DNA of 64,000 nt from a virus: positions 20,814-84,813 of the IMG/VR virus record IMGVR_UViG_3300000318_000002, one strand, 5' to 3'. This document shows positions 20,730-45,659 of the stretch, piece after piece. Each line of letters starts with the position of its first letter. Within the stretch, counting starts at the first letter, position 1. The notes under the pieces are model-generated. The model was not told where the DNA came from. It saw nothing but the letters and a program-made list of their open reading frames with translations, and ran no database searches. The position numbers were made by a program, and so were the translations under genes.

Positions 20730-21167
20730 ATGGAAATTTTAAAACATATTTTTTCAGATGCTATATTCTGTTTTGTTTTGTTTTTGATTAAATTTTATGT
20801 TCCTGATTTTGTTGGAGGATTCGGGGTGTTTACCGGGATTCTGTTTTCTTTAAATATTTTGTATTTGCTTTTTTGTATAAGTAATGCTCAAGAAGGATAC
20901 TTTGACAAGCGTTTTCATAAAGAAAATATAAAATTTGCAAATAGAACTATTTCTTTGTGGGTATATGATATTGCTACGGACATATTATATATCATTATTT
21001 TTATTGTTTATTTCCATTATGTTTTTGCTCCAATAGTATTGATGTTTTCCCTAATGGCTAAATTTTATGGCAAGCCAATATTTAACACGTATAAAATATG
21101 GTATGATGCGGTTTATTCAAAGCTTCTGGAGTTTGAGAAAACAAAACTTACAAAAGGACTAAAATAA
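20730..21167 (+). CDS. multi-pass membrane protein
   Basis: Three to four hydrophobic segments. Confidence 0.65.
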   Translation: MEILKHIFSDAIFCFVLFLIKFYVPDFVGGFGVFTGILFSLNILYLLFCISNAQEGYFDKRFHKENIKFANRTISLWVYDIATDILYIIIFIVYFHYVFAPIVLMFSLMAKFYGKPIFNTYKIWYDAVYSKLLEFEKTKLTKGLK

Positions 21168-22077: not shown

Positions 22078-22415
22078 AATTTGAAAAGGCACTAGAATTG
22101 GTTAATGTACAATTAAAAAAATCATATCCGTTCTTTAAAGGTGTTGATGAACAAGATGGAAAAGCAATGATTATGATTTGGAATATGTTTGCACTTGTAA
22201 AAAAAAATAAGCTTGACGATTTAGTTTTAATAGCTAAGAACGGAACAGATATAATTTCTATCCCAATTCCCGATGAATTGGAAGACGAAAAAACGTTCAA
22301 TGAGGCTGATGAACAAATAAATGAGTCATCCAAACCGAAGAAAGCAACAAAGAAAGATGCAAAAGGCGCAAAGCCCGATGTCATCTCCGCAACCTCAACA
22401 GAACCAAATAGCTGA
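22074..22415 (+). CDS. hypothetical protein
   Basis: 113-aa ORF, AAGGAG RBS. Confidence 0.6.
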   Translation: MKFEKALELVNVQLKKSYPFFKGVDEQDGKAMIMIWNMFALVKKNKLDDLVLIAKNGTDIISIPIPDELEDEKTFNEADEQINESSKPKKATKKDAKGAKPDVISATSTEPNS

Positions 22416-24030
22416 TACCTACAATAGAGCTTATAAAGAAGGAAGAGCCGCTGTCAAAGAACTTGAAAAGCGGCTCTCTCTTTCTGTTCCTTCCGGCGTA
22501 AAATACGATCAACTCAATAATATCTCTTATAACAATGTTGTTTATCAACGTGATAAAATCCCAGATAGAATCCTTAAAATGGTTGAGCGTCGGAATCCGG
22601 TTGTTGCCGCTGGAATAACGCTCCGGATACAGCAAGCTCTTGAATATTCTAACATTTCCCATGATAAAGATGTTCCCGGTTGGGAATTTGTCCCGCGTGA
22701 TGAGAAACAACAAATGACGCCCAAAATGGAAAAGCAGAAACTTTTCCTTGAATACCTTCTAGAAAAAGGTCATTCTTCTGATTATACGTCATTTGATGGT
22801 GTTGATGAACCTTCTTATTTCCGTGAAAGAATTACTCAATATGTTCGTGATCGAATAACTATTGATAAAGTATGCTGGGAGATTGAACGCGATCTCAAGG
22901 GACGTGCTATAGCACTATGGACTCTCGACGGTGCTACAGTGTTCCCTGTACTTCCTGGCGGGTTTTGGGGTTCGTGTTCGATGATTACCGCTGGGATGGG
23001 AGGGGGTTATACAGAACTTGCCGAAAAGATCCGTCAAGCCCGTCTGACAAATGTTCCTCCAGTCGAAAAAATAGCATTTGTTCAAGAACTTCTTTATGGC
23101 ATGAGTGGCGGCGGGATTGCTGCGGCTTTCACAAATAAAGACATGATTTATGATATTTCAAATGACCTTAATGATGTTCGTTATTATAAACAAGGGTTTT
23201 CAGTTATTGAAAAAGCGAATATTGCCATAACTGCTTTTATCAATTCCCTTTCCTATAATTCAAACGGTCTTTCCCGTGGTGCTATTCCAAAAGTAGCAAT
23301 TTCTATGGGCAAGGAAAGCGGTTACACCGAAGAACAACTTGAAGATCTTCAAGACGAATGGATGGCAAATTTTGAAGGTGTAGATTCTCAATGGAATATT
23401 CCGCTTCTTAATGGGGATGCAAAAGTTCTTAATCTTTTGCCGTCAAATCGTGATATGGAATATCAATCGTACCTTGAATTTACAGGTGCATTAACTTTTG
23501 CCTGTATGGGTATAGATCCTACTGAATGCGGGTTACGATTTAATCAAGCAACTCAGATTATGTCAGAGAACAGCGATGGGAAACAAAAGTTTTCTAAGAA
23601 TCGCGGTCTTGCCGAAATGCTGACCTCTTTTGCGTATACGACAAATAGATTCCTTGAACTCAGTGGATATGATTTTGCAAAAGACTGGAATTTCCGTTTT
23701 AACGGATTATCTTTTGAGGATAAAGGTTTTGAGGCTGATCTTAGAGAAAAGGCAATAAGAACAGATACTACAATTAATGAAAGTCGCATAAAACGCGGTG
23801 ACAAACCGATCAAATATGGTGATATTATTGCGAACCCTCAATTTATTCAATATATAATGAATAAAGAACAACAAGAACAGCAAGGTCAAGATCAAAGTGA
23901 TAATCAAAATGATTTTGGTAGTGATGATACCGAAGATGATGATCTTGATTCAACCGTTGATGATGCAATGAATGAAGCTTTAGGAAGTGATTCATCTCAA
24001 AAAATGGAAAAAGCGTTTAGATTAATATAA
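22321..24030 (+). CDS. portal protein
   Basis: 569 aa; WEIERD..G..IALWTLDGATV, GFSVIE, W.IPLL, NRDMEY, IDPTECG, SKNRGL, TINESR...GDII.NP resemble SPO1/herelle-type portals. Confidence 0.9.
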   Translation: MSHPNRRKQQRKMQKAQSPMSSPQPQQNQIADTYNRAYKEGRAAVKELEKRLSLSVPSGVKYDQLNNISYNNVVYQRDKIPDRILKMVERRNPVVAAGITLRIQQALEYSNISHDKDVPGWEFVPRDEKQQMTPKMEKQKLFLEYLLEKGHSSDYTSFDGVDEPSYFRERITQYVRDRITIDKVCWEIERDLKGRAIALWTLDGATVFPVLPGGFWGSCSMITAGMGGGYTELAEKIRQARLTNVPPVEKIAFVQELLYGMSGGGIAAAFTNKDMIYDISNDLNDVRYYKQGFSVIEKANIAITAFINSLSYNSNGLSRGAIPKVAISMGKESGYTEEQLEDLQDEWMANFEGVDSQWNIPLLNGDAKVLNLLPSNRDMEYQSYLEFTGALTFACMGIDPTECGLRFNQATQIMSENSDGKQKFSKNRGLAEMLTSFAYTTNRFLELSGYDFAKDWNFRFNGLSFEDKGFEADLREKAIRTDTTINESRIKRGDKPIKYGDIIANPQFIQYIMNKEQQEQQGQDQSDNQNDFGSDDTEDDDLDSTVDDAMNEALGSDSSQKMEKAFRLI

Positions 24031-26929: not shown

Positions 26930-28342
26930 ATGAAAAAAACCGTTAAACAGGTTGAGCAAAAAGAATATCAAGAAGTTAAATACATACGTGAGCTGACCGA
27001 ATATTGGTCGGCTTACGTTTCTTCGGTTATCAATGAAATATTTGTTGGTATAGGAACAACTCTTGGTATTTCTGAAAACGAAGCATATAAACTAATAAAA
27101 AATGATCCGTCAAAACTTGAGAAAGCTGGATTCTTTAAAAGCATATTTGAAAAGTTTAAAAATATTTTTAAGTATCGTGTTAAAAAATTCAGACCAAAGG
27201 TAAAACTATTTAATAAAGATGGATCAGTTATTGATGAAAAAAGATGGCAAAAAGTTCAGGACGATATCCATGATTTTTGGGTAAAACAAACTCAAAAAAA
27301 TTCAGAGGATATGACTCTAAAAGGTTTTATTCTTGGCAAGAAAACAAGTAAATATAGAGAAGAAAAGAAGAAGAACTTTGAGAATAAATCTTTTGAACAG
27401 ATAGATGAAGAAGAATATAAGAATAAAATGCCGTCGCGGATTGAAGAAATATATGCAGATTTAAAACCGTCTGAACGCCGGACTATGAATAAAGCCTTGT
27501 CACGTGTAGCAATGCACGTAGCAGACGTTGAAAATAAAGTAAAAAGCTCAATACGAAAGAATGTAGTGCAAGGTCTTAATGCCGGTAAAAGCCCAACGCA
27601 AATAGCGTCTGACCTTTACTGGAATGTTCAGGGAGGATCTAAACAATCAGCAGACGTATTGAGACGCGATTGGAATAGGATTGCTGAAACAGAGGTTCAA
27701 AGCATTTATGAAGCCGGTATTCTTGCGCCTCATGAAGAAGAGGCAAGGGAATCAATAGAAAATCCAGAAAAAGCACAATATTTTGTTTATACAGGCGGAA
27801 CTTGTAAGTGGTGTAAATCCCAACAAGGGACTATTGTCAGGTTACTTCCGGAAGACGTTATAAGAGATAAAAATAATGACAGTCTTTCGTCAATGGGTAT
27901 TGATGATTATTTTACAGATATCGCTGTTTGGATTGGTAAAAATAATGTCGGACGGTATTCGTATAAAGATCCTTACTGGCAAATCTGTACACCTGCTCAT
28001 CCGCACGGGGTAGCTACGTTACATCCTATAGATTTTGAAAAAGAATTTTACAATGAAAATACGGGACGAGTAGAAGCCAAATTGACGCAGTATTCAGGAA
28101 TACCAAAGAAAAAAGATTTTGAGTTTACACCGGAAGAAATAGAAAATAGAAAGCCTCATTTTGTCGGCAATAACAGAGTGATGTTTAATGATAATTTGTA
28201 TGAAAGAGTATCTCCTGATGAATATAAATCATCTTTAAAACGCTGGAATGATAACCCTAATCTTCCGATTCCCGTATCGGCAGGGACTACAAGTGATAGA
28301 CAAATTTTTGAAGCTGCGGAGAAAAATAGAAATGATTCTTGA
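26930..28342 (+). CDS. head morphogenesis protein (MuF / SPP1 gp7-like)
   Basis: IASDLY...RDWNRIAETE, CKWC, and PAHPHG (equivalent of HPxCRC). Confidence 0.75.
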   Translation: MKKTVKQVEQKEYQEVKYIRELTEYWSAYVSSVINEIFVGIGTTLGISENEAYKLIKNDPSKLEKAGFFKSIFEKFKNIFKYRVKKFRPKVKLFNKDGSVIDEKRWQKVQDDIHDFWVKQTQKNSEDMTLKGFILGKKTSKYREEKKKNFENKSFEQIDEEEYKNKMPSRIEEIYADLKPSERRTMNKALSRVAMHVADVENKVKSSIRKNVVQGLNAGKSPTQIASDLYWNVQGGSKQSADVLRRDWNRIAETEVQSIYEAGILAPHEEEARESIENPEKAQYFVYTGGTCKWCKSQQGTIVRLLPEDVIRDKNNDSLSSMGIDDYFTDIAVWIGKNNVGRYSYKDPYWQICTPAHPHGVATLHPIDFEKEFYNENTGRVEAKLTQYSGIPKKKDFEFTPEEIENRKPHFVGNNRVMFNDNLYERVSPDEYKSSLKRWNDNPNLPIPVSAGTTSDRQIFEAAEKNRNDS

Positions 28343-32831: not shown

Positions 32832-35800
32832 ATGAACAAGTCTCAAATAAAAGCACTTATCAGGAAAAATATTAAGATAGATAATCTTGAAAAATCAAAA
32901 GAAATGTTAAAAAATCAATATAATATATCCTTTGGGAGATATGAACCAGAAGAAATCAGGCAATCTCTTATAAAGGGACTACCGGTTCTCGTACAGGATC
33001 ATTTTATTATAGGAATGGACGAAGCAAAACAAAACACTTTTGAGGATACCGACGGAAAAGTTTTTAGTATAGATGTCCCTGTAAAAGCAATTATTGTAAA
33101 TGATGAAATAGATCAGGACGATATTGATGCCTCAACAGATAATTTTGCAATCATCGGACGCAATGAATGGAAAACGCCGATTAATGAATTTGATAATATT
33201 ATTGCACCGCTTAGAAATGGGAAACCTTTTCTTCCGAAAACTCCTGTTATTTTTAATTTTCTTAATCTTACAGATGAAATAAAAAAAACAGATATTGTTT
33301 CTAAAACTGTTGGAGCGCAAATTTATCTTTATGATAAAGACGGATACATCGATAATGCTTTTCACGAGATAGGTCATATCTTTTGGAGAACCCGATTGAC
33401 CTATGACGAGCAAGAATTATTCCAGGAAATCTTTGATAGTGGAAAACTTTCGAGTGCCATTTATGAATACGAATGGGAAAAGAAATCAGCAGAAGAAATT
33501 TTCTGTACAGTTTATAAATGGTATTTAAAATCAATTCTGATAAATACATCTTTCCGTAAAATTCTTTCTTTTGAAGAACCAGACGGATATGATCTTATGG
33601 TTTCAATTGTTCAGCGTATTGGAGAAGACAATATCAGGTCGGATGTTTGGGAAAGTGTAGAAGACAAGGTTAGAGAATACCTAAATCCTCGATATGATAC
33701 AACGACAAATAGTTTTATCCGTAAACGTGGTGATTTTGATGCTATCAAAGATGTCGAAATACCTTCAGAACTTTTGGAAGATATTTCTTCAGTTCAAGAT
33801 GGAATAAAATATGTTAATCTATTTAAAGGTAAAAATCCTGTTCCCGTAAAAGAATATTCTATTGATTTTGTAAGGGCAACCGAAGATTTTACTAAAAAAC
33901 TTGAGAAGTCGCGTCCGATTATCCCCGCTGGGAAAGAAGTTTTGTACATGGATATGGACGGAGTTATCGCAGATATAGGAACAGGATATAAAGAGTTGTC
34001 CGGACGTAATATCTTTAAAGATGATACTTTTACTGTTCGACAGACGATAGGTTTGATCCCTCATTTTTGGCGTAAATTGCCCGTCCTTCCCAAAGGGAAA
34101 GAGCTTTACGATATGCTCAAAGATTATTACGCTATTATATTTCTGACAACTCCGATGGATTCTATAGATTCTTGTAAGATGGATAAAATAGCATGGGCGA
34201 AGCAGTATTTCCCTGAAGTTAAAACAATTCTATTCAGTGATAAAAAAGAAGAATACGCAGCGTCAAATAAAAGCGTATTGATAGATGACTATGGTAAAAA
34301 CGTAAAAGCATTTAATGATGCCGGAGGAAGTGCTATAAATTTCAAAGAAAAAAATACCGAAATAGTATCGCAGATAAAAGAAATATTTAATCCTAAAGAT
34401 GAAATTGCTGAAATAAAAGAGCAATTAAAATCTATGCAAGTTGATCCTTCCCCGTTCGAAGCACAAAAGAAAACGGGAAATTATAAAAAGGGTAAAATAT
34501 TATTCAAAGGGCTTTCTCTTATAATCGAAAATCCGAAAGGATCTATCCGTTTTGGTCGCGGATCTGACGGTAAGCGTTGGATGAATATTATGAAGGCACA
34601 CTACGGATATATTGATACAAAGCCAGGAGAAGAAGGTGCTGATGGCGATAAAATAGATTTCTTTCTTGGTGAAAATTTATCAACAAATAAAGTGTTTGCC
34701 ATAAATCAGGTGTGTCCGGAAACGGGGATGTTTGACGAAATCAAGTTGGTTATGGGTTGTAATACCGCCGAAGAAGCAGAAAAGCTATATCGATCATGTT
34801 ATTCTAAAAACTGGACCGGATTTGGTTCAATAGTCCAGACGAATACAAAGGGCATACGAGAATACATCCAAAACGGGTATAGATATGAACCTTTTGGGGA
34901 TAATTTTATAGAGCAAGAACCGCTACAAAAAGCAACATTTTTAGAAATGCTAAAAGCCAGAATTACAAAATATGTAAGACGTGAACCAGACGGTAAAGGC
35001 GGATGGAAGTATTTTTATAAAAACAATATAAAGAATAATACAATCCAAAATCAGGAAGAACATAAAGATAGAAAAATATCTCAAACCGAAACTCCTGAAT
35101 TTAAAAAGTGGTTTGGGGATTCAAAAGTTGTAGATAAAAATGGTAAACCCTTAATCGTTTATCACGGAACAACGGCTTCAAATATTAAAGAATTTAAACC
35201 TGAGAGATTACACGGACGAAATGGAATTTATTTTACAGATAAACAGGAAGAAGCCCAATTATATGGGTCAAATATAATAAAAGTCTATGTAAAAATGGAA
35301 AATCCCAAAATTTTTGATGCTGAAGGTAAATCTTTCAATGATATTTTTGACAAAATTGAGCCACTATTAAGATTCTTAGGCAAGTTTGAGAATGATGGTA
35401 TAATTATAAAAAATGTATATGATTCCCCTTCCGGGAAGAAGGAGGGGCGAAAATCTACAACATTTATTGTAGATGATGCTTCACAAATAAAATCAGCAAC
35501 AAATAATAATGGTAATTTTGATCCGAATGAATCTGATATGACAAAAGCACACGATTCTTTTGATATTTCAGATAAAGAAATTGTACAATCCTTGGATCAA
35601 ATAAAAAAAGAAATAACCGTCAACCATGATTTTGATATTCCTTATTTATGCGGATACAGCAAAGACGCTAAAACAATTTACATCGATAGACATCTTCCAA
35701 AGATGAAAACACGTGGACATTTTGATTCTGATGATGCTCTGATAATGCACGAAGCTACTGAAAAGGCAATGGAGAAAACATATCATCTGGAATATGCCAA

Positions 35801-36008
35801 AGCTCACCAGATCGCATTACGTGCCGAAAAAGCATATGTAGAATCTCAAGGTATTTCATGGAAAGGTTATAATTCCTTTATGCAAAAGTACATTAAGAAA
35901 GCTGGAGATGAGAGACTTACGGAAACTCCTAAAAATCTGGATTTGCAACCATATCGTAATTGTCATGATTATTCCGAGTTGACAAAAATTTCAAAGGTGC
36001 AAAAGTAA
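32832..36008 (+). CDS. polyvalent multidomain protein 1: HExxH peptidase, HAD 5'(3')-nucleotidase, pyrophosphatase-like, ART-like, HExxE domain
   Basis: FHEIGH; YMDMDGVIAD..LIDDYGKN; GNYKKG..IENPKGS.R..HYGYI..GADGD.ID; TPEFKKWFGDSKVVD.NGKPL.VYHGT..QIKSA.NNGNFD; IMHEATE. Confidence 0.8.
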   Translation: MNKSQIKALIRKNIKIDNLEKSKEMLKNQYNISFGRYEPEEIRQSLIKGLPVLVQDHFIIGMDEAKQNTFEDTDGKVFSIDVPVKAIIVNDEIDQDDIDASTDNFAIIGRNEWKTPINEFDNIIAPLRNGKPFLPKTPVIFNFLNLTDEIKKTDIVSKTVGAQIYLYDKDGYIDNAFHEIGHIFWRTRLTYDEQELFQEIFDSGKLSSAIYEYEWEKKSAEEIFCTVYKWYLKSILINTSFRKILSFEEPDGYDLMVSIVQRIGEDNIRSDVWESVEDKVREYLNPRYDTTTNSFIRKRGDFDAIKDVEIPSELLEDISSVQDGIKYVNLFKGKNPVPVKEYSIDFVRATEDFTKKLEKSRPIIPAGKEVLYMDMDGVIADIGTGYKELSGRNIFKDDTFTVRQTIGLIPHFWRKLPVLPKGKELYDMLKDYYAIIFLTTPMDSIDSCKMDKIAWAKQYFPEVKTILFSDKKEEYAASNKSVLIDDYGKNVKAFNDAGGSAINFKEKNTEIVSQIKEIFNPKDEIAEIKEQLKSMQVDPSPFEAQKKTGNYKKGKILFKGLSLIIENPKGSIRFGRGSDGKRWMNIMKAHYGYIDTKPGEEGADGDKIDFFLGENLSTNKVFAINQVCPETGMFDEIKLVMGCNTAEEAEKLYRSCYSKNWTGFGSIVQTNTKGIREYIQNGYRYEPFGDNFIEQEPLQKATFLEMLKARITKYVRREPDGKGGWKYFYKNNIKNNTIQNQEEHKDRKISQTETPEFKKWFGDSKVVDKNGKPLIVYHGTTASNIKEFKPERLHGRNGIYFTDKQEEAQLYGSNIIKVYVKMENPKIFDAEGKSFNDIFDKIEPLLRFLGKFENDGIIIKNVYDSPSGKKEGRKSTTFIVDDASQIKSATNNNGNFDPNESDMTKAHDSFDISDKEIVQSLDQIKKEITVNHDFDIPYLCGYSKDAKTIYIDRHLPKMKTRGHFDSDDALIMHEATEKAMEKTYHLEYAKAHQIALRAEKAYVESQGISWKGYNSFMQKYIKKAGDERLTETPKNLDLQPYRNCHDYSELTKISKVQK

Positions 36009-36032
36009 ATTTGTAAAAGGACGTAGTATCAC

Positions 36033-39000
36033 ATGAAAAACCCTCTCTTTTCCTCTTTCTCTCCTCAACAATTAAGATTTGCTATAGAGTATGAAATGCG
36101 ATTCCGAGATGATCCTAAAATCGCGTCAGATATCGCAATCGGGCGTTTAACGGAAAACCCAAAATATTATGATCAGTTTGCAAAGATGGAGAAAGCTCGT
36201 ATTACAAAATATGTAAGACGTGAACCCGACGGTAAAGGCGGGTGGAAATATTTTTATAAAAATAATGTAAAAAAAGAATCAAAGGAAATAGTTGAAGGTA
36301 CTTCTGAATGGGCGGAAAGAATGTTTATTAATAAAGAAATACCAGAGGGATGGTACGTTCATGGAAGAAGTAGAGGACATAATGAGGATTTGACTACAGG
36401 AGCAGTGACCCAATGTACTAAAAGATGGGATGTTGCAGAACATTATGGTCGGTCAGGTTCGATGTTCCTTATTCATCCAGATAAAAATGCAAAAGTATTA
36501 GATCTTTCATCATCAAATACTAAAGATATGGATATGGTTGTAAATCTTTTTACTAATCAATATGTAAAAGATATAATGCCAGATGAAATACAGGAATTAT
36601 TTATTCCTTTAGATATGAAAAATGAATTAACTATAGAAGAAAAAAAAGAACATATTGAAAAAGTAGTAAGAAAAGAATTTTCTCCTAAAGATATCGTGAA
36701 TTCGGCTGAAGCTTATGACAGTTTAGAGTTAATGGATTATTTTGATAGATTAAATATAGCAGATTTTGTAATAACTCCTGATGGTGCGGTGATAACTGGA
36801 GATTTGGATAAAATAAAAAAAGTAAAAATCCCGAATCATCAGCTGTTAGAGAAAGCCAATCAATTATCTATCGGAACGAAAATAGAATCAGAACATAAAG
36901 AGACAGTTGATTTTATCCGTTCTTATGTTAAAAAAAATGGGAAGATGCCTCTTGATAAGGAAATATATAAACATATTTCGATGAATCATACTGAAAAAGA
37001 AATGAAAGATTATTATACTCGATTGATTCAAATGGAGAAACAAGCCAAAAAAGATAAAAAGCGTCCTCAGATTGAAATAGATGTTATAAAATTTCTTATA
37101 GATAATCCAAACCCTCCTGATTCAAAAATACATGCTTTTGCAGAGAGCAAAAGTCTTGATCCTTCAAAACTTGAAACAGTAGTCTATCGGATAGCAACCG
37201 AAAGAGCAAAGATGAGTACAGATATGTTTAAAGCCCGTATCGTCAAATATATCCGAAAAGAACGAATGAAAGACGGTAAGTTCAAATATTATTACGCAGA
37301 CGGTACGCACTCGACAACCGAAAAAGAAAAACCCTTTAATGTCGTAGAAGCTTTTAAAAATTTCTTTGGTCTATCTGATGAGAAGATTGCAAAAGAAAAG
37401 ATTAAAAAAGACTATTACGAACATAAAATTTCAGCAAAATATAATTTATCTTTACTCGGTTGGGCAGATCATCTTTCAGAATATTTTATTCATAAAGATA
37501 AATGGGACAGTAAGTTTTCAAATAAAACTCCCGAAACAAAAGCGGATGATGCCAAAAAGGATACAAATGCCGAAAAGAAGGCTTCTACACCTTCTGAAAA
37601 GCCTAAGTTTAATACCAACGCAATGAAAGAAATTTATGATCTTTATAATAAAAAGGCTGAAGAACCTATAAAAGAAACCGCCAAAGAGTCAGAGGCTATT
37701 GTCGAGCCTGTTAAAGAAACATCGGAACAAAAAGCAAAAGATATTCAAATATCAACTGCGATAAATACTGTAACTCCTGAAAACAGAAATGAAAAAGAAA
37801 ATGAAATCCTTAATATCCCTGAACTAACAGAACCAGAAAAAGAAAATATAATAGAGCCAACGGTTGAATTTGTTCCTGATTATGAAGTAGTCTCTATCCC
37901 TGGATTAATAGTTGAAGGTAAAAATAACAGTCAACATTTATTAAAAAGTTATTTAAAAGTAAAGCCGAAAGATATTTTACTACAAAATGAAAAAACTATT
38001 CTTACCAAAGAAAAACCATCATATATTCCTGAAGTTGATGAAAAATTTCTTAAAGGAGCAGGATTTGTTATTCCAACATACAAACTTGAAACTGACAAAT
38101 ATTTAATTCAGACTAATGCAAAACGGAAAGTATGGACAGAAGATAAAAAATGGCATATCGCAGGTGAAGATACTTATATTATAGTGAATAGAGATGTTCT
38201 TGCAGCAACTTATGATTATTTTATCAAGAAAGCCAAGATGTTAAAGAAAGAAGAAACAAAAAAAAGACAAGAAAAATATCCTGATTATAAAGTTACAGCA
38301 GAAAGAATTACAGTTTTAACCGATAAGAAAATGTCGTATGATCAACAACGAGTATTTTCTTATTTCATTCGGAATGTAACGGGTTTTTCTGGCGGTGGTT
38401 CAAAGTTCATGTGGGAAAAATATAAAGAAATAAGAGAAGATATTGCTCAAAAAACATCGGATATGGAAATACAGCTTGAAGATTATTATAATGCTCATGC
38501 GAAAGGAAGAGAAACTTCATATGGAGATAAAGGAACAAATGATTCTCTTCTAAGCACTTTGGGAGTAAAAGTAAAAAGACAAAATGGCGCGGAGATTACA
38601 TCAAAAGAAATAACCGAAATAAAAGATGCTGTTGATGACGTATTCTCTGTTTTTGGGAATAGATCTTCTATGGCTAAAAATTTTGGGTTGAAAATATCTC
38701 ATGCTGGGGATAAGAATATGCACGCTCGGAACGCAGCAGGGATATTTATACCCTCTCTTAAGGTAATCGGCGTAACAACTCAATATGGAAATGGAACGAC
38801 TGGATTTGTTCTTGCTCATGAATGGTCTCATTTTATGGATTTTTATGTTGGTGAAAAAAATGACAGACATTATATTTCCGATAATCCGAACCATGTTGCA
38901 GGCGAAATAGCAGATACGTTTAGAAAAAACATGAAAAAACAACAAAAATCTGCATACTATAATCGTACTTGTGAATGTTTCGCAAGAGCATTGGAGCAAT

Positions 39001-39236
39001 ATTGGGCTATTAAAACAAACAGTACAGATATACTTCAAAGATGGGATAGTTTAGGGACACATCCCGAAGAAAATATTTTTAAAGAAAAGGTAATGCCACT
39101 CATTGATAGATTTTTATCTGAAAATGACCAATTACTCAAAGCTTTTTTCAACGATAATTTCAATAAAAATAAAAATATCTTGATTAAATCTTTTGATCGT
39201 GTAAAAGGTGTATTTGTTTACAGGAGAATGAAATAA
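36033..39236 (+). CDS. polyvalent multidomain protein 2: DUF5661-like x2, possible ART-like domain, C-terminal LPD1-like zincin peptidase
   Basis: L.ENPKYY and DYYTRL motifs; WYVHG..AEHYG; LAHEWSHFMD...ECFARALEQY. Confidence 0.7.
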   Translation: MKNPLFSSFSPQQLRFAIEYEMRFRDDPKIASDIAIGRLTENPKYYDQFAKMEKARITKYVRREPDGKGGWKYFYKNNVKKESKEIVEGTSEWAERMFINKEIPEGWYVHGRSRGHNEDLTTGAVTQCTKRWDVAEHYGRSGSMFLIHPDKNAKVLDLSSSNTKDMDMVVNLFTNQYVKDIMPDEIQELFIPLDMKNELTIEEKKEHIEKVVRKEFSPKDIVNSAEAYDSLELMDYFDRLNIADFVITPDGAVITGDLDKIKKVKIPNHQLLEKANQLSIGTKIESEHKETVDFIRSYVKKNGKMPLDKEIYKHISMNHTEKEMKDYYTRLIQMEKQAKKDKKRPQIEIDVIKFLIDNPNPPDSKIHAFAESKSLDPSKLETVVYRIATERAKMSTDMFKARIVKYIRKERMKDGKFKYYYADGTHSTTEKEKPFNVVEAFKNFFGLSDEKIAKEKIKKDYYEHKISAKYNLSLLGWADHLSEYFIHKDKWDSKFSNKTPETKADDAKKDTNAEKKASTPSEKPKFNTNAMKEIYDLYNKKAEEPIKETAKESEAIVEPVKETSEQKAKDIQISTAINTVTPENRNEKENEILNIPELTEPEKENIIEPTVEFVPDYEVVSIPGLIVEGKNNSQHLLKSYLKVKPKDILLQNEKTILTKEKPSYIPEVDEKFLKGAGFVIPTYKLETDKYLIQTNAKRKVWTEDKKWHIAGEDTYIIVNRDVLAATYDYFIKKAKMLKKEETKKRQEKYPDYKVTAERITVLTDKKMSYDQQRVFSYFIRNVTGFSGGGSKFMWEKYKEIREDIAQKTSDMEIQLEDYYNAHAKGRETSYGDKGTNDSLLSTLGVKVKRQNGAEITSKEITEIKDAVDDVFSVFGNRSSMAKNFGLKISHAGDKNMHARNAAGIFIPSLKVIGVTTQYGNGTTGFVLAHEWSHFMDFYVGEKNDRHYISDNPNHVAGEIADTFRKNMKKQQKSAYYNRTCECFARALEQYWAIKTNSTDILQRWDSLGTHPEENIFKEKVMPLIDRFLSENDQLLKAFFNDNFNKNKNILIKSFDRVKGVFVYRRMK

Positions 39237-42200
39237 ATGAAAAAATCCCTACTGAAAATTAAAGATAAATTTTTCATTAATATGGAAAAAGCTATTCCCG
39301 AATCAACATATGAACATTCTGATAAACTTGGAGAAGGGGCTAAAAAAAGAAAAAAACTACATTTAAATAAAGATAAATTTGACGCAGTTATGCATGAATT
39401 TAAACGTGGGACATTACGTTCTGGGTCAGGTGAACATGTAAAAGATCATAATCAAGCGGTTGCGATAGCAATGCATGAAAGTGGAATGGCGAAAGCAGAA
39501 TCTCCCGAAGTCCAGGCGAAGATTAAGAAAGTTATGGACGAATTTAAAGCTGGAAAACTAAAATCAAGTAGCGGACAAATAGTAACTGATCGGAATCAGG
39601 CTTTGGCTATCGCATATTCATATTTTAAGAAGGCAGATAACTCGATGACAAAAGCAAATGAATGTTCTTTTCTTGATGATGTCTATGCGGCAAAAGAAAA
39701 TACCCTTATACCTTCAGATATAGATGTTTATCAACTCGCTATGGGAATACAAGTAGAGTTCGGGGAACATACAAATGATATCCAGATTGCAATGCAAATA
39801 GCAATGGATCATCTTGAGGAAAATCCGGTATATTATACTAAATTGCAAGAATCAGGGCTTGTAGATGAAGTGTTGTTACATACCTATGAAATATCAAATA
39901 TTCTCCGTGGAGCATTACCATTTAATGCAGGGTTAGAGCCTATGGAGAAGGCAAGGATTACGAAATATGTAAGACGAGTTCCGAAGCCATCGGGAAAAGG
40001 TTATATTTATTTCTATAATAAAGCCGAATACGAACATTATAAAAAAACAGGAGAACTTCCAACAAAGCAAAAGTCTATTTTCTCTAAAATTATATCATTC
40101 TTTGGTCTTGGATCTGATAAAGAAGCCAAAGAAAAAATTGATAAAATGTATGAAAGCCATAAGACAGTTTTGACAGGTGTTGGGAAAGATGCTTTCACCG
40201 ATCATGTCATAGAATATATAACAAACAAAGAAAAATGGGACAAAAAACTTTCAGCACCAAAAGCAGAGCGCAAAGAGTCAAAAGAAGGTGCTAAAAAAGA
40301 ACCTACAGAAAAGAAAAAAGTAGTTAAGAAAGAAGGAAAGAAATTTAATATTTCTGTAATGCGTGTTGTTGCGGGGATAGTTAATGAGAAGGAAAATAAA
40401 AAACAAAATGCAGGATCAAAAGATAAAGACAACTTTGAGACTATGCCGAAAGATGAAAAGAAATGGTATGAAAATATATTAGAAAAAATAGAAAATATTA
40501 CCAATGAAGATGATAAAAGTGGATTAAAGGAATGGATATCTGATTGGACTAATACTAAAGGATCTGTTCGTAAATCGTTGGCAAAAGATATTGAAGATAA
40601 ATTGTCTAATATTCAAGGCAAAGAAGAAAAAAATAAATTAAAAGAAAATTTGTCTAACTCACGATTGAAAAAATTTGAAGATTCAGGGAAAGAAGCTTTT
40701 GAAACCACCAAGAAAGATTGGGTAGAGATGCAACGAGAAGAGCGGCGAATTATGGGGCAAAATGAAGGTAATGGGAATCCGAATGCTCCTTATTCTGATT
40801 ACGAAAACTATCATAATGATTCTGTAAGACGTGCTATTGAAGAAGGTAAAACGGTTTCTCCTGAAGTGTTGAAGGATTATCCTGAATTAAAAAAAGACAA
40901 TAGCATAATCAAAGAAATTGATAAAGTCAAAGATGAGATAAAAAAACAAATAAATACAGAAGAAGATATCGAAGATGAAGAAACTAAACTTCAAAAAGAA
41001 TCAGATGAACATTTGAAACAAAAACCCGAAAAGGTAGAAAGACCTTCCGTTCTTGATAAGGGCGGAGATAATTTCTGGAATGGAAAAATTTATGGTAATG
41101 AAAAATATGGTTTCAATATATATTTAAACAATGAAAAGGAAGTTATTCCTAAAAGTGTAGCCCAAAAATTAGAGCAATATGTTGAATATCGTCAAAAATT
41201 AAAGTCATGGAAAGAAAAACAAGAAACTATTGATAATAAACAACTTAAATTTAAAAATAAAAATGAACAACTACAACAAATAATTGATAAGCCGATAGAA
41301 CATATTAAGAAAATAGCTGAAGATAACTTTTTAACACAAGTTGATGGGATGTTTGTTAGTACTGATTATACGGGTGCAAAAACAATTATTGTTGATGATG
41401 TAAAAGAACAAAAACTTATAGATCGTATGAAAGAATGGACTCCTAAAGATTTTAAAGAAATGTTAAAGGAGAGAATAGGAACAATTACAAAAGAAAGCAG
41501 TAAAAAAGAAAATGAAGTTAATACTGTATTAAATAAAACTATAAATGATAGTATTGATAACGAGTTTGTAGAACATCTTAAAAATATTGTTAAAAATCGT
41601 TTAATCGAATTGAAAGCAGAATCGCTCAAACAAAATAAAGATAAAGAGGAACAAGATAAAAAGAATAAACTTATACAAGAAAAAATTAATGAAGCTGAAA
41701 AGAAATATATCCCAGAAGGCTATTGGAATGGTAAAGTTTATGGACGTCATGGTAACTACAATATTTATGTAGATAATAAAAAAAGAGCTATAAACGATAA
41801 TGTTGCTTTGGAGCTTATGGGGGGCGAAAAAAAATCAATGTCAAAAGCCGAAGAACTTGAAGATATGTTAAAAGCCAAAAAAGCAATCACCGGGGAAGTA
41901 CATACCTATAAAAACGGCAAGAAATATCGTAAAGAAGGCGATAAATGGGTACTCGTAACAAGTGGTAAGAACAAAGTCAAAGGGAAACCGGAAGAGAAAA
42001 ATAAAAAGAAAAAATCTAAAACTGGAGGAAAAAATAAAATATCTAAAGAAGATCGGAGTTTAATAAAAAATACTCTGAAACGAGTAGCTTCGGTAATTGC
42101 AGAAGCTCTTGCTGGTAAAAATCCCAATGCTCAAGCCGCACAGGGGATCGAACATACAGGAGAAGATTTAAAATCAAGTAGTCATAAAGGCTTAACAGAA

Positions 42201-42533: not shown

Positions 42534-43406
42534 ATGTTATTCCGCGTAAACGGGTTTTACATCTCGAATCTACAGAAAGCAAAAGACGATAAACTCGTTA
42601 CTGTTGATATAATCGCAAATCATCTTACCGAAGACCAAGATAATGAAGTCGTTCTCAAAGAAGCCTTTGACGATGATACGGTCAAAGAATTTCTCGATAT
42701 CGGCGTTATCGAATTTTGGCATGAATCAAAAAACGAACTTCTTACCAAAAAAGAAAAAAATGATAATCTTATAGGTCGCCCCGTAGCTTTTCGTTGGGAA
42801 AATGGGCTTCCGGTTGTTACTGCGACACTTTCAAAAACTCATCCTATCGTACAGTCAATGATGCCTCATCTTGAATCGCAAAATCCTGTATACGCCGCTT
42901 CAATAGGCGGTTCTAAAGTCGTACTCGAAGCAAAAGATAATTCGGGTGAAATACATAAAATAATCCCCAAAATACGTTGGGATCATCTTGCTATAGCTCC
43001 TCAAAATATGGTCGTGAACCGTGAACCTGGAATAAATGTCAAGATGCTTGAAAAAGCAAAATCTATATATAATTTTAGCAATTTTACTACTCTTGCAAAA
43101 GCTCTTGAAGCCCCCGGTTCGGTAGACGCTCTTTATTCAACTCCCGGCGGTGCTATTACCAAACAATCTCTTGAAAAAAGTATTTCCGTTCAAGGTTTTT
43201 CGGAATCCGAAGCGGATCTTTTACTTGATACTATACTTAAATATGCAAACGGAGAAATGCCGACAGATAAAGTTGGTTATTTTGCTCTGTTTCCAAACAA
43301 TGAAGAATTTGCCGATAAGTCGTATCGGCTGTTCGATAACCATTTTAAAAAAGGAGAATTCGTAAATGAAGTTTTCAAAAGAAGAACTTCTTGCCAAAGG
43401 TATTGA
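42534..43406 (+). CDS. prohead protease
   Basis: A.....DQDNEVV, G.I.F.H, IGRP, ASIGG (catalytic Ser context), HLAIAP..VN; upstream of scaffold and capsid. Confidence 0.8.
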   Translation: MLFRVNGFYISNLQKAKDDKLVTVDIIANHLTEDQDNEVVLKEAFDDDTVKEFLDIGVIEFWHESKNELLTKKEKNDNLIGRPVAFRWENGLPVVTATLSKTHPIVQSMMPHLESQNPVYAASIGGSKVVLEAKDNSGEIHKIIPKIRWDHLAIAPQNMVVNREPGINVKMLEKAKSIYNFSNFTTLAKALEAPGSVDALYSTPGGAITKQSLEKSISVQGFSESEADLLLDTILKYANGEMPTDKVGYFALFPNNEEFADKSYRLFDNHFKKGEFVNEVFKRRTSCQRY

Positions 43407-44154
43407 TCCGATTGTCGCTGATGAAATAATCGCGTCATATGACCGTACCGATGACGGAACTCCCCTGTCTAAGCTTGAAAAAGCTTTGAAGCCGAAAAAG
43501 AAAAATGACGAACAGTCGCTTTTTAAGGCTGAAAAAGGGGAAAAAGAAGGGGACGCAGAAGATGATGCAGAACCAGATGATGATGAAGATGACAAAGAAA
43601 AGTTTATGAAAAAGAACAAAAAGGCAATGAAAAAAGCCGAAGAAGAAGACGAAGATGAGGAAGACGAAAAAGAAATGAAAAAAGCATTTGATTCGATTGA
43701 TAGAACTGCTCCTGGTGCTGTTGTAGAAATGGAAGATCTTGCTCCGTCTCTTTCTGCTATCCATAAAAGCTTTTCTTCACTACTTAAAGCGGTAAATGAC
43801 CTTTCAAATCGTGTTGATACTATTGTTTCTCAAAATGAAGAATCTTATAGTCTCATGCACAAAGCCGCAGAACTTCAGGTCGAAACTTCAAAAGGTCTTT
43901 CAAGTGTTCTGTCTATTCCGGCTGGACGTAAAGGCGTAACTGCTTCCGTCAATATGGAAAAAGCTCAGGGCATAAATACTGATCTTGCTAACCGCGCACT
44001 TGTTTATCAGGTACTCGCTAAAGCAGTTAAGCTCAAAGATCCTATCGGCGGTGCTATTGCAGAGCGTTATGAAAGTGCTGGTCACGATATTCGCGCTCTC
44101 AGTAAAGATGACCGCGCAGGGATCGCAAAACTTATTCAGGAGAATAATAAATAA
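43366..44154 (+). CDS. capsid scaffold protein
   Basis: Acidic coiled-coil protein between protease and capsid, with eight [LM]xKA sites. Confidence 0.75.
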   Translation: MKFSKEELLAKGIDPIVADEIIASYDRTDDGTPLSKLEKALKPKKKNDEQSLFKAEKGEKEGDAEDDAEPDDDEDDKEKFMKKNKKAMKKAEEEDEDEEDEKEMKKAFDSIDRTAPGAVVEMEDLAPSLSAIHKSFSSLLKAVNDLSNRVDTIVSQNEESYSLMHKAAELQVETSKGLSSVLSIPAGRKGVTASVNMEKAQGINTDLANRALVYQVLAKAVKLKDPIGGAIAERYESAGHDIRALSKDDRAGIAKLIQENNK

Positions 44155-45659
44155 TGGACGAAGAACTTTTCCCACTCACCGACAGCTCGATGGGATCTGA
44201 ACAGATGGGACAGTTTCAGGAGCTTCTGAAAGCTCTTGCAGCTCCTGGATCTGTTGACGATCTCTACGGTACGCCTGGCGGTGCTATTACTCAACAGTCA
44301 CTCGAACTGATGCTTGCAAATCTTACCTTGAAACCGACGGATATGACTTTCTGGCAGGATATTGTTAAGATCAAAGCATTTTCAACCGTTGAAGAATACA
44401 ATCAGCTTATTGGTTCTGGTATTAGCGATGGCGGATTCGTGGATGCAATGGAAAATCCGGAATTTTCCGATCCTGATATCCTCAAACAGATAGCAATTGT
44501 AAAATTCATGTCTGAAGGTTGGAAGGTTGGTGATGTACAGGAGCAAACCCGTACAACTGTAGCTTCCCGTGCGCTTTCTCAGAAAGCGGCGATGACTCGT
44601 CTCCTCCGTAACGTAAACCGTGCTCTGTATTCTGGAAATTCACTCTGGATTCCGGAATCAATTGACGGTCTTTCCGCTACTATCTCCGGATCAAGCTCAA
44701 GTCAGGTATTTGACCTTCGTGGCGCGTCTCTGACTATGGCGGCGCTGAATCTTGCCGGTCAACTTATTACCGAAGGCAATGGGAATGTTGAAAATTCAAA
44801 TCTGTACCTTTCCCCTGCTGGAGTACAGAATCTTTCAACGATCATAGAATCTACCGGAGATGCAACAAATAACCGTAAATTTGTGCCAATGGGTGATGGG
44901 AACATTACTATCGGCGGTAAAATATCAGACATTATGACCAATTATGGGAAGATAAAAACTCGTATGGACAAAGTTCTTGGTCTTGAATATGAAGCAAACG
45001 GCGTTCCTAAGATTTTCAATAACAAGACTAAAACTTGGTACGAAGGTCCTACTTCTGAATTTGCTCCCTCTGCTCCTACTATTGCTCTTACGAATCAGGG
45101 AACTATTGCAAATTCTCAGTATTCCGCAACAGGGACTCGTCCTTCTGGTGTAAAAGCTCGCTATCGTGTTTCTGCTCGTAATCGTTATGGTCGTTCAATT
45201 GCTTGCGCTCTTGTTGAGTCTACTTCGGTTGTAGCTTCCGGAGGTGGTATTGATATCGCTATTACTCCTGTTTCTACAGATACTGGGAAACGTACGCCTT
45301 CTTGTTTCGTGATCTATGGCGAACAGGTATATAATTCTGGAGAATTCCGTTATCTCGATACGATTGCGGTTGATACTACCAATCCATATGCAGTTGTTAC
45401 CTATCATGAAAAGAATTCATACATCCCCGGTACTGCTCGCATGTTCATTGTTGACCAGACTTCTGCCGGAGAAGATCGTTCCCTTGCTTTTGCGCAACTT
45501 GCGCCAATTCATAATACCGATCTTTCCAAAGAAAACCGTTCAACTCGTGGTCTCATCAATCTTTATGGAACGATGAAATACTATAAACCTCAGGTTCTTG
45601 TTGAAATCCGTAACATCGCTGTTACTCAGGCAAACATTAATCTGTACAACAATAACTAA
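44154..45659 (+). CDS. major capsid protein
   Basis: 501 aa; LLKAL..G......GGAIT.QSLE..L..LT....TFW.DI.K..A.STVEEY..., resembling SPO1/herelle-type capsids. Confidence 0.93.
   Translation: MDEELFPLTDSSMGSEQMGQFQELLKALAAPGSVDDLYGTPGGAITQQSLELMLANLTLKPTDMTFWQDIVKIKAFSTVEEYNQLIGSGISDGGFVDAMENPEFSDPDILKQIAIVKFMSEGWKVGDVQEQTRTTVASRALSQKAAMTRLLRNVNRALYSGNSLWIPESIDGLSATISGSSSSQVFDLRGASLTMAALNLAGQLITEGNGNVENSNLYLSPAGVQNLSTIIESTGDATNNRKFVPMGDGNITIGGKISDIMTNYGKIKTRMDKVLGLEYEANGVPKIFNNKTKTWYEGPTSEFAPSAPTIALTNQGTIANSQYSATGTRPSGVKARYRVSARNRYGRSIACALVESTSVVASGGGIDIAITPVSTDTGKRTPSCFVIYGEQVYNSGEFRYLDTIAVDTTNPYAVVTYHEKNSYIPGTARMFIVDQTSAGEDRSLAFAQLAPIHNTDLSKENRSTRGLINLYGTMKYYKPQVLVEIRNIAVTQANINLYNNN

Follow-up and report, generated by a model that had tools for sequence, protein, structure and literature searches.

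A head-protease-like site and an adjoining hairpin probably mark polyvalent-protein cargo that is cut up in the phage capsid

A locus of IMG/VR record IMGVR_UViG_3300000318_000002 bears on how polyvalent proteins enter a phage head and how such giant chains are converted to working enzymes. The phage genome is a single contig of 84.8 kb (84,813 bases) with about 33% guanine plus cytosine (GC), of which the 64,000 nucleotides from position 20,814 to 84,813, hereafter the window, were analysed; coordinates of this phage are given from the first letter of the window. Three long open reading frames (ORFs) of the window encode proteins in which a short element, here called the header, recurs: an M-x-K-A motif and, behind it, a peptide with the look of a β-hairpin. 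A first-pass annotation of the window had read this element as a possible capsid-loading tag, a reading that is partly supported by the present work. Judged from sequence, the header is probably the mark of cargo destined for cutting within the capsid.

Four copies were found where the annotation had placed them, on the plus strand and in frame in the three ORFs, with M-x-K-A at 34947, 36186, 37224 and 39942 (Table 1); a six-frame regular-expression scan of the 84,813 bases gave exactly these four. They start at residue 706 of protein 1, at residues 52 and 398 of protein 2, and at residue 236 of protein 3. The peptides of copies 1 (34953-35027) and 2 (36192-36266) agree in all 25 residues, while their DNA differs at 7 nucleotides, which fall in 6 codons and are without exception synonymous. 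As 14.5 of the 75 sites are synonymous and 60.5 are not, 7 random changes would all be silent with a probability of about 1e-5, which bears out the proposal that (purifying) selection acts on the peptide. The similarity of copies 1 and 2 at the DNA level spans about 90 nucleotides only, with background level on either side. A reading of the repeat at the DNA or RNA level was rejected on two grounds: the silence of the differences, and the conservation of the peptide across very different base compositions. The cargoes behind copies 1 and 2 are unrelated, as had been claimed (BLASTP E = 0.56); that of copy 1, an ART-PolyVal domain, follows after a polar linker of about 35 residues. Equally, the helical domain behind copies 3 and 4 is shared, with 31-53% identity among six relatives, and it regularly stands behind the PKPSGKGY subtype, represented here by copy 4, in relatives.

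The header is conserved far beyond this phage. Two related IMG/VR phages (L001 and L002; L numbers denote loci of other genomes) hold nine further copies, some of them in small separate ORFs ahead of other cargo, including an ADP-ribosyltransferase toxin domain; their cargo also includes domains in which inspection by eye suggests a RadC-like H-x-H-P motif. The core pattern P-D-G-K-G-G-W-x-Y-x-Y occurs in 29 IMG/VR stretches, high-GC phages and one phage with nine copies among them, in a scan with a degenerate DNA pattern whose seed set is biased towards the PDGKGGW subtype; only 3 stretches with it were found among 185,579 bacterial and archaeal species genomes. A profile of 30 columns, built from 43 copies, starts one residue ahead of K-Y and therefore excludes the K-A site. 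It retrieved 271 clusters (E ≤ 0.001) among 1.84 billion representative proteins, and one match is annotated in NCBI as uncultured Caudovirales phage. Clusters with 2-5 copies are frequent among these, as are small proteins that bear the motif near residue 20. The hairpin consensus has three parts, (H/T)-K-Y-x-x-R-x-P, D-G-K-G-G and W-x-Y-x-Y; the extended consensus runs from hydrophobic-x-K-[AGS] through an optional x-x-G-E-x-x-x-G to H-K-Y-x-x-R-x-P-D-G-K-G-G-W-x-Y-x-Y. No Pfam family covers the header, a PDB sequence search with it gave no family, and neither these databases nor the searched literature describes it, motif-string literature searches being empty. The best explanation of this spread is a widespread unnamed element of about 20-30 residues on cargo modules of head-packaged polyvalent proteins.

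The coupling of hairpin and K-A motif seen in the window is general. Among the best 150 of the profile-matched proteins, which hold 225 copies, an upstream [LMIFV]-x-K-[AGS] lies within 16 residues of 206 copies (92%), as against 12% at random positions of the same proteins. The residues are L, M or I at the P3 position, K at P1 and A (139), S (36) or G (30) at P1', with H in place of K in a small group of copies; site and hairpin are 0-11 residues apart, with maxima at 3 and 9. The hairpin of the closest relative begins at P2' (K/A-K-Y, the slash marking the putative cut), and two proteins start with M-A-K-Y, which after removal of the initiator methionine equals the predicted cut product.

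Several lines of evidence suggest what this site is. Hydrophobic-x-K-[ASG] motifs number 12, 8 and 10 in cargo proteins 1, 2 and 3 (4.2-4.8 expected), five in the protease-like protein encoded downstream (1.1 expected) and 10 in the scaffold-like protein (1.5 expected). The head block as a whole has 46 of them against 17.9 expected (2.6-fold), the rest of the genome 65 against 59.3 (1.1-fold). The capsid protein has a single such motif, L-L-K-A at residues 24-27 (44223-44234), and a site is kept at the capsid N-terminus in 7 motif-bearing relatives and in Bacillus phage SPO1. A repeat search also revealed that a C-terminal stretch of the protease (43092-43175) copies the N-arm of the capsid protein (44223-44306) after L-A-K-A. 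These patterns support the view that the K-A motif behaves like a local prohead-protease site, hydrophobic-x-K-[AGS] being the probable cutting site of the head protease, and from them we infer cleavage in this phage. The cut made by gp4 of phage HK97 follows a lysine. This enzyme takes about 104 residues off the N-terminal end of the HK97 capsid protein (PMC9024508).

AlphaFold2 (AF2), run on a 42-row alignment, predicts two strands, R-R-E-P and W-K-Y-F, around the D-G-K-G-G turn, with a pLDDT score (prediction of the local distance difference test) of about 88; the K-A site is at the end of a low-confidence helix. Of the earlier description of the peptide as a basic/aromatic β-hairpin, the hairpin is thereby upheld, while 'basic' holds locally only, as the net charge varies among relatives. 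In the model one face of the hairpin would bear the conserved side chains (I/V, R, P, W, Y, Y) and the other the variable residues, the look to be expected of a docking surface. From the copy-4 sequence AF2 predicts the hairpin and then five helices, which form the helical domain (the copy-3 stretch entered as an alignment row), and a Foldseek search of the PDB with this hairpin-plus-helices model gave no fold match.

The genomic context, read from IMG/VR and genome loci, places the header among head genes. In this phage the three adjacent cargo ORFs of the plus strand come after a portal gene and a MuF-like gene, and immediately 3' of them lie a protease-like, a scaffold-like and an SPO1-type major capsid gene. 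Wherever the context is identifiable, motif-bearing genes lie in head modules. Of 13 viral records that bear the motif, 10 have a homolog of the window capsid protein, among them each of the five whose completeness is 90% or more (counts without phylogenetic control). In the first record set, all 8 records with a capsid match have the motif genes on the strand of the capsid gene, at a distance of 2-28 kb and for the most part upstream of it. The motif ORFs of an Acidimicrobiia metagenome-assembled genome (MAG) adjoin a portal gene. The neighbours of the motif gene of L007 gave no family match, and the only match near that of an Omnitrophota MAG stretch (L043) was a glycosyltransferase.

By their domains and neighbourhood, the three window proteins are phage polyvalent proteins, a class described by Iyer, Burroughs, Anand, de Souza and Aravind in 2017 (PMC5512222): each has at least two domains of the repertoire (DUF5661 and a weakly matching LPD1 in protein 2), and their genes lie within the head and packaging block. 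Like known members, these multi-domain chains combine InPase, ART-PolyVal, NT5C and metallopeptidase-like domains. Elsewhere, Pfam matches of 67 motif-bearing proteins represent the polyvalent and Dar repertoire, the cargo families of the header being ART, InPase, Zeta toxin, NUDIX, RelA_SpoT, ddrB-ParB, Kinase-PolyVal and CCA-adding enzyme. The enzyme last named (L007 1825-3294) is of the CCA-adding/poly(A) polymerase family, with an HD domain, and has the hairpin after only nine residues. An ORF 5' of a NUDIX cargo gene in another head module (L008 6399-7922) has an intein/Hint domain (Intein_splicing, 3e-9).

The suggestion that cargo is swapped at the repeat is supported by a protein of another contig, P0002, which is a mosaic of window proteins: the leader of protein 2, the ART domain of protein 1 and the helical part of protein 2 are joined in it. 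Its residues 1-163 correspond to 1-144 of protein 2 (55% identity, the first 57 residues near-identical by eye), 49-158 to the header and ART region of protein 1 (703-812, 67%), 308-351 to the ART region of protein 1 (855-907, 55%), 345-506 to protein 2 396-557 (81%), and 747-1303 to protein 2 561-1067 (37%). The joints of this mosaic are at headers, which supports the idea of recombination there.

Our best explanation, held with moderate confidence, is that the header is a cut site plus a retained hairpin heading each mobile cargo module, and that the hairpin docks inside the head. The three polyproteins would be built into the procapsid, where the probable HK97/S78-type protease encoded downstream would cut after lysine, as it would when processing the scaffold, its own chain and the N-terminus of the capsid protein. 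Each freed module would keep the hairpin as its new N-terminus, whose conserved face would dock on a conserved partner within the head (the inner surface of the capsid, the scaffold, the portal or the packaged DNA), and the cargo would thereby be held or positioned up to its ejection along with the DNA, so that the hairpin could serve in loading, retention or positioning. Exchange of cargo modules from gene to gene and from phage to phage would also take place at the header. What we infer here is that cleavage occurs, that the hairpin stays at the N-terminus, that it docks, and what its partner is. A wider formulation, more tentative and somewhat less probable, would make the header a general, portable code for address and cutting in a large clade of phages whose heads are SPO1-like: any protein that bears it would enter the procapsid, be cut free by the head protease, be held by the hairpin and be injected.

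A number of observations weigh against this explanation. The link to one capsid family could reflect shared descent instead of interaction, and several headers per polyprotein are more than loading alone needs. In L006 (2956-5121) a 722-residue protein combines a Phage_portal_3 domain, a hairpin without a K-A site, DUF5661 and InPase; its gene adjoins a MuF gene and a DUF2213-type protease. Portal and cargo are thus fused in a head system of another kind, and the hairpin should be redundant there as a loading signal. Two proteins with NT5C plus InPase (L001 6400-7431 and L002 7950-9962) are the only ORFs of their cargo blocks that lack a header, which implies that the header cannot be the sole route into the head. 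The capsid protein, the scaffold and the protease have the site with no hairpin, and the hairpin is therefore not needed for cutting. A tblastn search of cultured phages with a 34-residue copy gave chance matches only, and a literature search found no experimental N-terminus for SPO1-like capsid proteins and no N-terminal or mass-spectrometry data for relatives.

The alternative that fares best, although we consider it unlikely, is that the header is for processing only, the hairpin docking on or being presented to the prohead protease, marking the place at which a folded polyprotein is to be cut and having no role after cleavage. The short and near-universal distance to the site (0-11 residues, down to the P2' start in the closest relative) and the presence of several headers per polyprotein, one at each module boundary, agree with this; that distance is nevertheless variable within its range of 0 to 11 residues, there are hairpins at native N-termini and in the site-less portal fusion, and the head proteins that have the site dispense with the hairpin. 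We think it slightly less likely still that the hairpin is a handle for DNA, its aromatic and arginine face binding the packaged genome so that freed modules stay on the DNA and exit with it. Such a face is what the model suggests, the net charge of the window copies is about +6, and DarA-Hdf of phage P1 contacts DNA in the head (PMC12810830), but the headers of high-GC relatives are nearly neutral, the charge thus not being conserved. A weak resemblance to Zn_Ribbon_Topo (PF08272), a zinc-ribbon-like DNA-binding hairpin of topoisomerase I, also points to DNA; it is confined to two window copies, however, and was rejected as an assignment, its score of 14.0-14.6 bits (E = 0.03-0.04) being far below the family threshold of 25, and the sequence and fold searches of the PDB lend the handle no support.

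Distinctly less probable is a function after injection, by which the hairpin would direct the effectors to a host structure or protect their N-terminus, the link to head modules being indirect. The hairpin would indeed stay on the mature effector, unlike known capsid-targeting peptides, and the enzymes that the header precedes act on nucleotides, NAD or tRNA of the host. The cut would moreover leave N-terminal Ala, Ser or Gly, which are stabilising residues in the bacterial N-end rule. It is, however, a capsid gene family that is common to most motif-bearing phages, and the range of their DNA from 33% GC to high GC means very diverse hosts, which makes a common host target less likely than a common phage partner. 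Finally, a functionless recombination scar or flexible linker left by module shuffling would account for the mosaic junctions at the header and for a short, sharply bounded DNA repeat, but it is already disfavoured to the point of being scarcely credible by the silence of all 7 of 7 differences between copies 1 and 2, by the same residues being kept in phages of very different base composition, and by the confident, ordered hairpin of the AF2 model.

Short peptides are known to load cargo into the heads of phages T4 and P1 (PMC9024508), and the first-pass annotation had proposed an analogy to the T4 capsid-targeting sequence, which is borne by IPI-III and Alt and is cut off by gp21 at hydrophobic-x-E/ (PMC9024508). 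The analogy is a loose one. Both are short peptides by a prohead-protease site (the putative hydrophobic-x-K/ in the window) and portable over unrelated cargo, on proteins that are, or in the case of the header would be, packed in the head and injected. The T4 sequence, however, is at the extreme N-terminus, whereas the header hairpin is mostly internal and repeated, the window copies starting at the residues given above (many copies elsewhere near 20); it precedes the cut and is discarded, whereas the header hairpin lies 0-11 residues past the putative P1 lysine, on the side that would be retained. The proteases differ in family as well, the gp21 type in T4 and probably the HK97/S78 type here.

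The Dar system of phage P1 is like the present one in that some motif-bearing proteins have ddrB-ParB or DarA_C domains. DarB of phage P1 is a polyvalent protein loaded by a short N-terminal peptide of 10-30 residues, which also loads a reporter (PMC9024508); DarA-Hdf binds the inner wall of the capsid (PMC12810830), DarA is trimmed by the head protease (PMC9024508, PMC12810830), and the capsid protein of phage P1 is cut after Glu, at E120/S121 (PMC9024508). The DarB signal was rejected as a relative of the header, its first 50 residues sharing K-Y-I-R only, with no G-rich turn and no W-x-Y-x-Y strand. The DarA_C lead was likewise abandoned, as the match starts at the second strand of the hairpin, runs into the next domain and gave no mechanistic yield: in the protein of the Acidimicrobiia MAG (L045 4410-4682) it begins at the last hairpin strand, and the P1-like DarA of Cronobacter phage JK004 (L050 1241-3205) has G-G-K-Y-R-Y at the matching place and no first strand. 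The part of DarA that matches the hairpin is unresolved in the cryo-electron microscopy structure. Sequence comparison establishes no homology of the header to the Dar system, and the window header is a member of neither the T4 nor the P1 system.

Encapsulin cargo peptides, which are short and conserved and tether diverse enzymes inside a shell of the HK97 fold, are like the header in principle only, being mostly C-terminal, not coupled to cleavage and not hairpins. The head itself may be compared with SPO1-like heads, matured by a prohead protease of the HK97 (S78) family. This phage has in common with them the gene order (probable) protease, scaffold, capsid and an SPO1-like capsid protein, and L-x-K/[AS] stands, as in SPO1, at the N-terminus of the capsid protein as well as in the tail of the protease. 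The cultured SPO1-like phages that were searched differ in having no header-bearing polyproteins; a tblastn search of cultured phages with a four-copy protein (P0004) gave one unrelated match. The searched papers describe no use of this site for segmenting giant cargo proteins.

In passages of the paper that defined the class (PMC5512222), polyvalent proteins are proposed to process themselves by their own metallopeptidase domains, and text searches of it returned mention of neither this header nor cutting by a head protease. The header, a head-protease site with a retained hairpin, points to a mechanism other than such self-cleavage; if the wider formulation is true, polyvalent proteins would be polyproteins processed by the capsid protease and not by their own peptidase domains. 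The header would provide a rule, at the level of sequence, by which to find injected effectors in the genomes of uncultured phages, and it would explain how cargo modules are shuffled without loss of processing. The rule predicts virion delivery of CCA-adding enzyme, RelA/SpoT, NUDIX and Zeta-toxin domains, so that, if the header marks virion cargo, the phage of L007 would inject a tRNA-repair enzyme. The header could also yield a compact capsid-loading tag, as the T4 and P1 signals did.

Table 1. Position of the headers, cargo proteins and head genes in the window.
Feature	Position	Strand	Basis or remark
Portal gene	22321-24030		
MuF-like gene	26930-28342		
Cargo protein 1, 1058 amino acids	32832-36008	+	Polyvalent protein
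Header copy 1	34947-35018	+	M-L-K-A site, then hairpin RITKYVRREPDGKGGWKYFY; protein 1 residues 706-729
ART-PolyVal ADP-ribosyltransferase domain, cargo of copy 1	35133-35519	+	Pfam PF18760, residues 768-896
Cargo protein 2, 1067 amino acids	36033-39236	+	Polyvalent protein
DUF5661 domain of protein 2	36066-36194	+	Pfam PF18905, residues 12-54; ends at the Lys of the M-E-K-A of copy 2
Header copy 2	36186-36257	+	M-E-K-A and hairpin; peptide identical to copy 1
Header copy 3, divergent	37224-37295	+	M-F-K-A, then RIVKYIRKERMKDGKFKYYY
Helical domain behind copy 3, common to protein 3	37296-37550	+	Alignment; AF2 alignment row
Cargo protein 3, 1001 amino acids	39237-42242	+	DUF6496 and DUF5661 (Pfam)
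Header copy 4	39942-40016	+	M-E-K-A, then RITKYVRRVPKPSGKGYIYFY
Helical domain behind copy 4	40017-40283	+	Alignment, AF2
Probable prohead protease, HK97/S78-like	42534-43406	+	One short spacer after the cargo ORFs
Scaffold-like protein	43366-44154	+	Placed between protease and capsid genes; hydrophobic-x-K-[ASG] motifs
Major capsid protein, SPO1/Herelleviridae-like type	44154-45659	+	phrog_752, 1.3e-59

The protease-like protein gave no Pfam match; its neighbours in the ESM Atlas are Peptidase_S78 clusters (features 0.96, TM score about 0.46-0.50), and the place of its gene ahead of the scaffold and capsid genes fits such a protease. The tblastn matches of the capsid protein are Bacteroides DAC phages and SPO1-like phages. 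The head maturation protease of SPO1 (L042 1907-2674) has a stretch, L-D-K-S-L-E-A-G, that matches the N-terminus of its own capsid protein, L-N-K-A-L-E-A-G, and mimicry of the capsid N-arm by the protease tail looks, from these sequences, like a conserved feature of SPO1-type heads.

Protein 1 consists of an N-terminal metallopeptidase-like domain with a HEIGH motif, NT5C phosphatase, InPase, header copy 1, ART-PolyVal and a C-terminal HEATE domain, with Pfam matches to InPase (2.5e-42), ART-PolyVal (2.7e-21) and NT5C (3.7e-6) and PHROG matches to virion and minor head proteins and to DarB-like proteins. The order in protein 2 is DUF5661, header copy 2, a domain of about 200 amino acids without a family, a DUF5661-like stretch, header copy 3, the helical domain, and a long C-terminal part, whose metallopeptidase motif, HEWSH, is LPD1-like; residues 572-1052 match phrog_22901 (5e-82). 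Protein 3 has a short leader ending in M-E-K-A, two DUF6496 repeats, DUF5661, header copy 4, the helical domain and a long K/E-rich remainder.

DUF5661 or DUF5661-like stretches (36066-36194, 36846-37040 and 39699-39851) lie shortly 5' of copies 2, 3 and 4. Elsewhere DUF5661 is the commonest Pfam family among motif-bearing proteins (8 of 67), and in L006 the order is reversed, the hairpin preceding DUF5661. In L002 the stop of the NT5C-plus-InPase ORF and the start of the ORF that follows, which bears a header, overlap.

Near the end of protein 3 (41865-41957), M-L-K-A is followed by a different hairpin-like stretch, G-E-V-H-T-Y-K-N-G-K-K-Y-R-K-E-G-D-K-W-V-L-V, which resembles a stretch after M-Q-K-A in L002 near 16324; by its sequence it may be a fifth, divergent header. 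A search with a simple regular expression for more examples of this type found none. Leaders of 8-20 residues that end in hydrophobic-x-K-A start protein 3 (39237-39293) and the protease (42534-42581) and also precede the hairpin in small cargo ORFs (L002 9962-10030 and 14701-14769). Many of them have a strand-turn-strand look, such as I-K-L-x-D-G-x-Y-I-x-L-x-K-A, and they may be removable propeptides, nearer in kind to the T4 targeting sequence.

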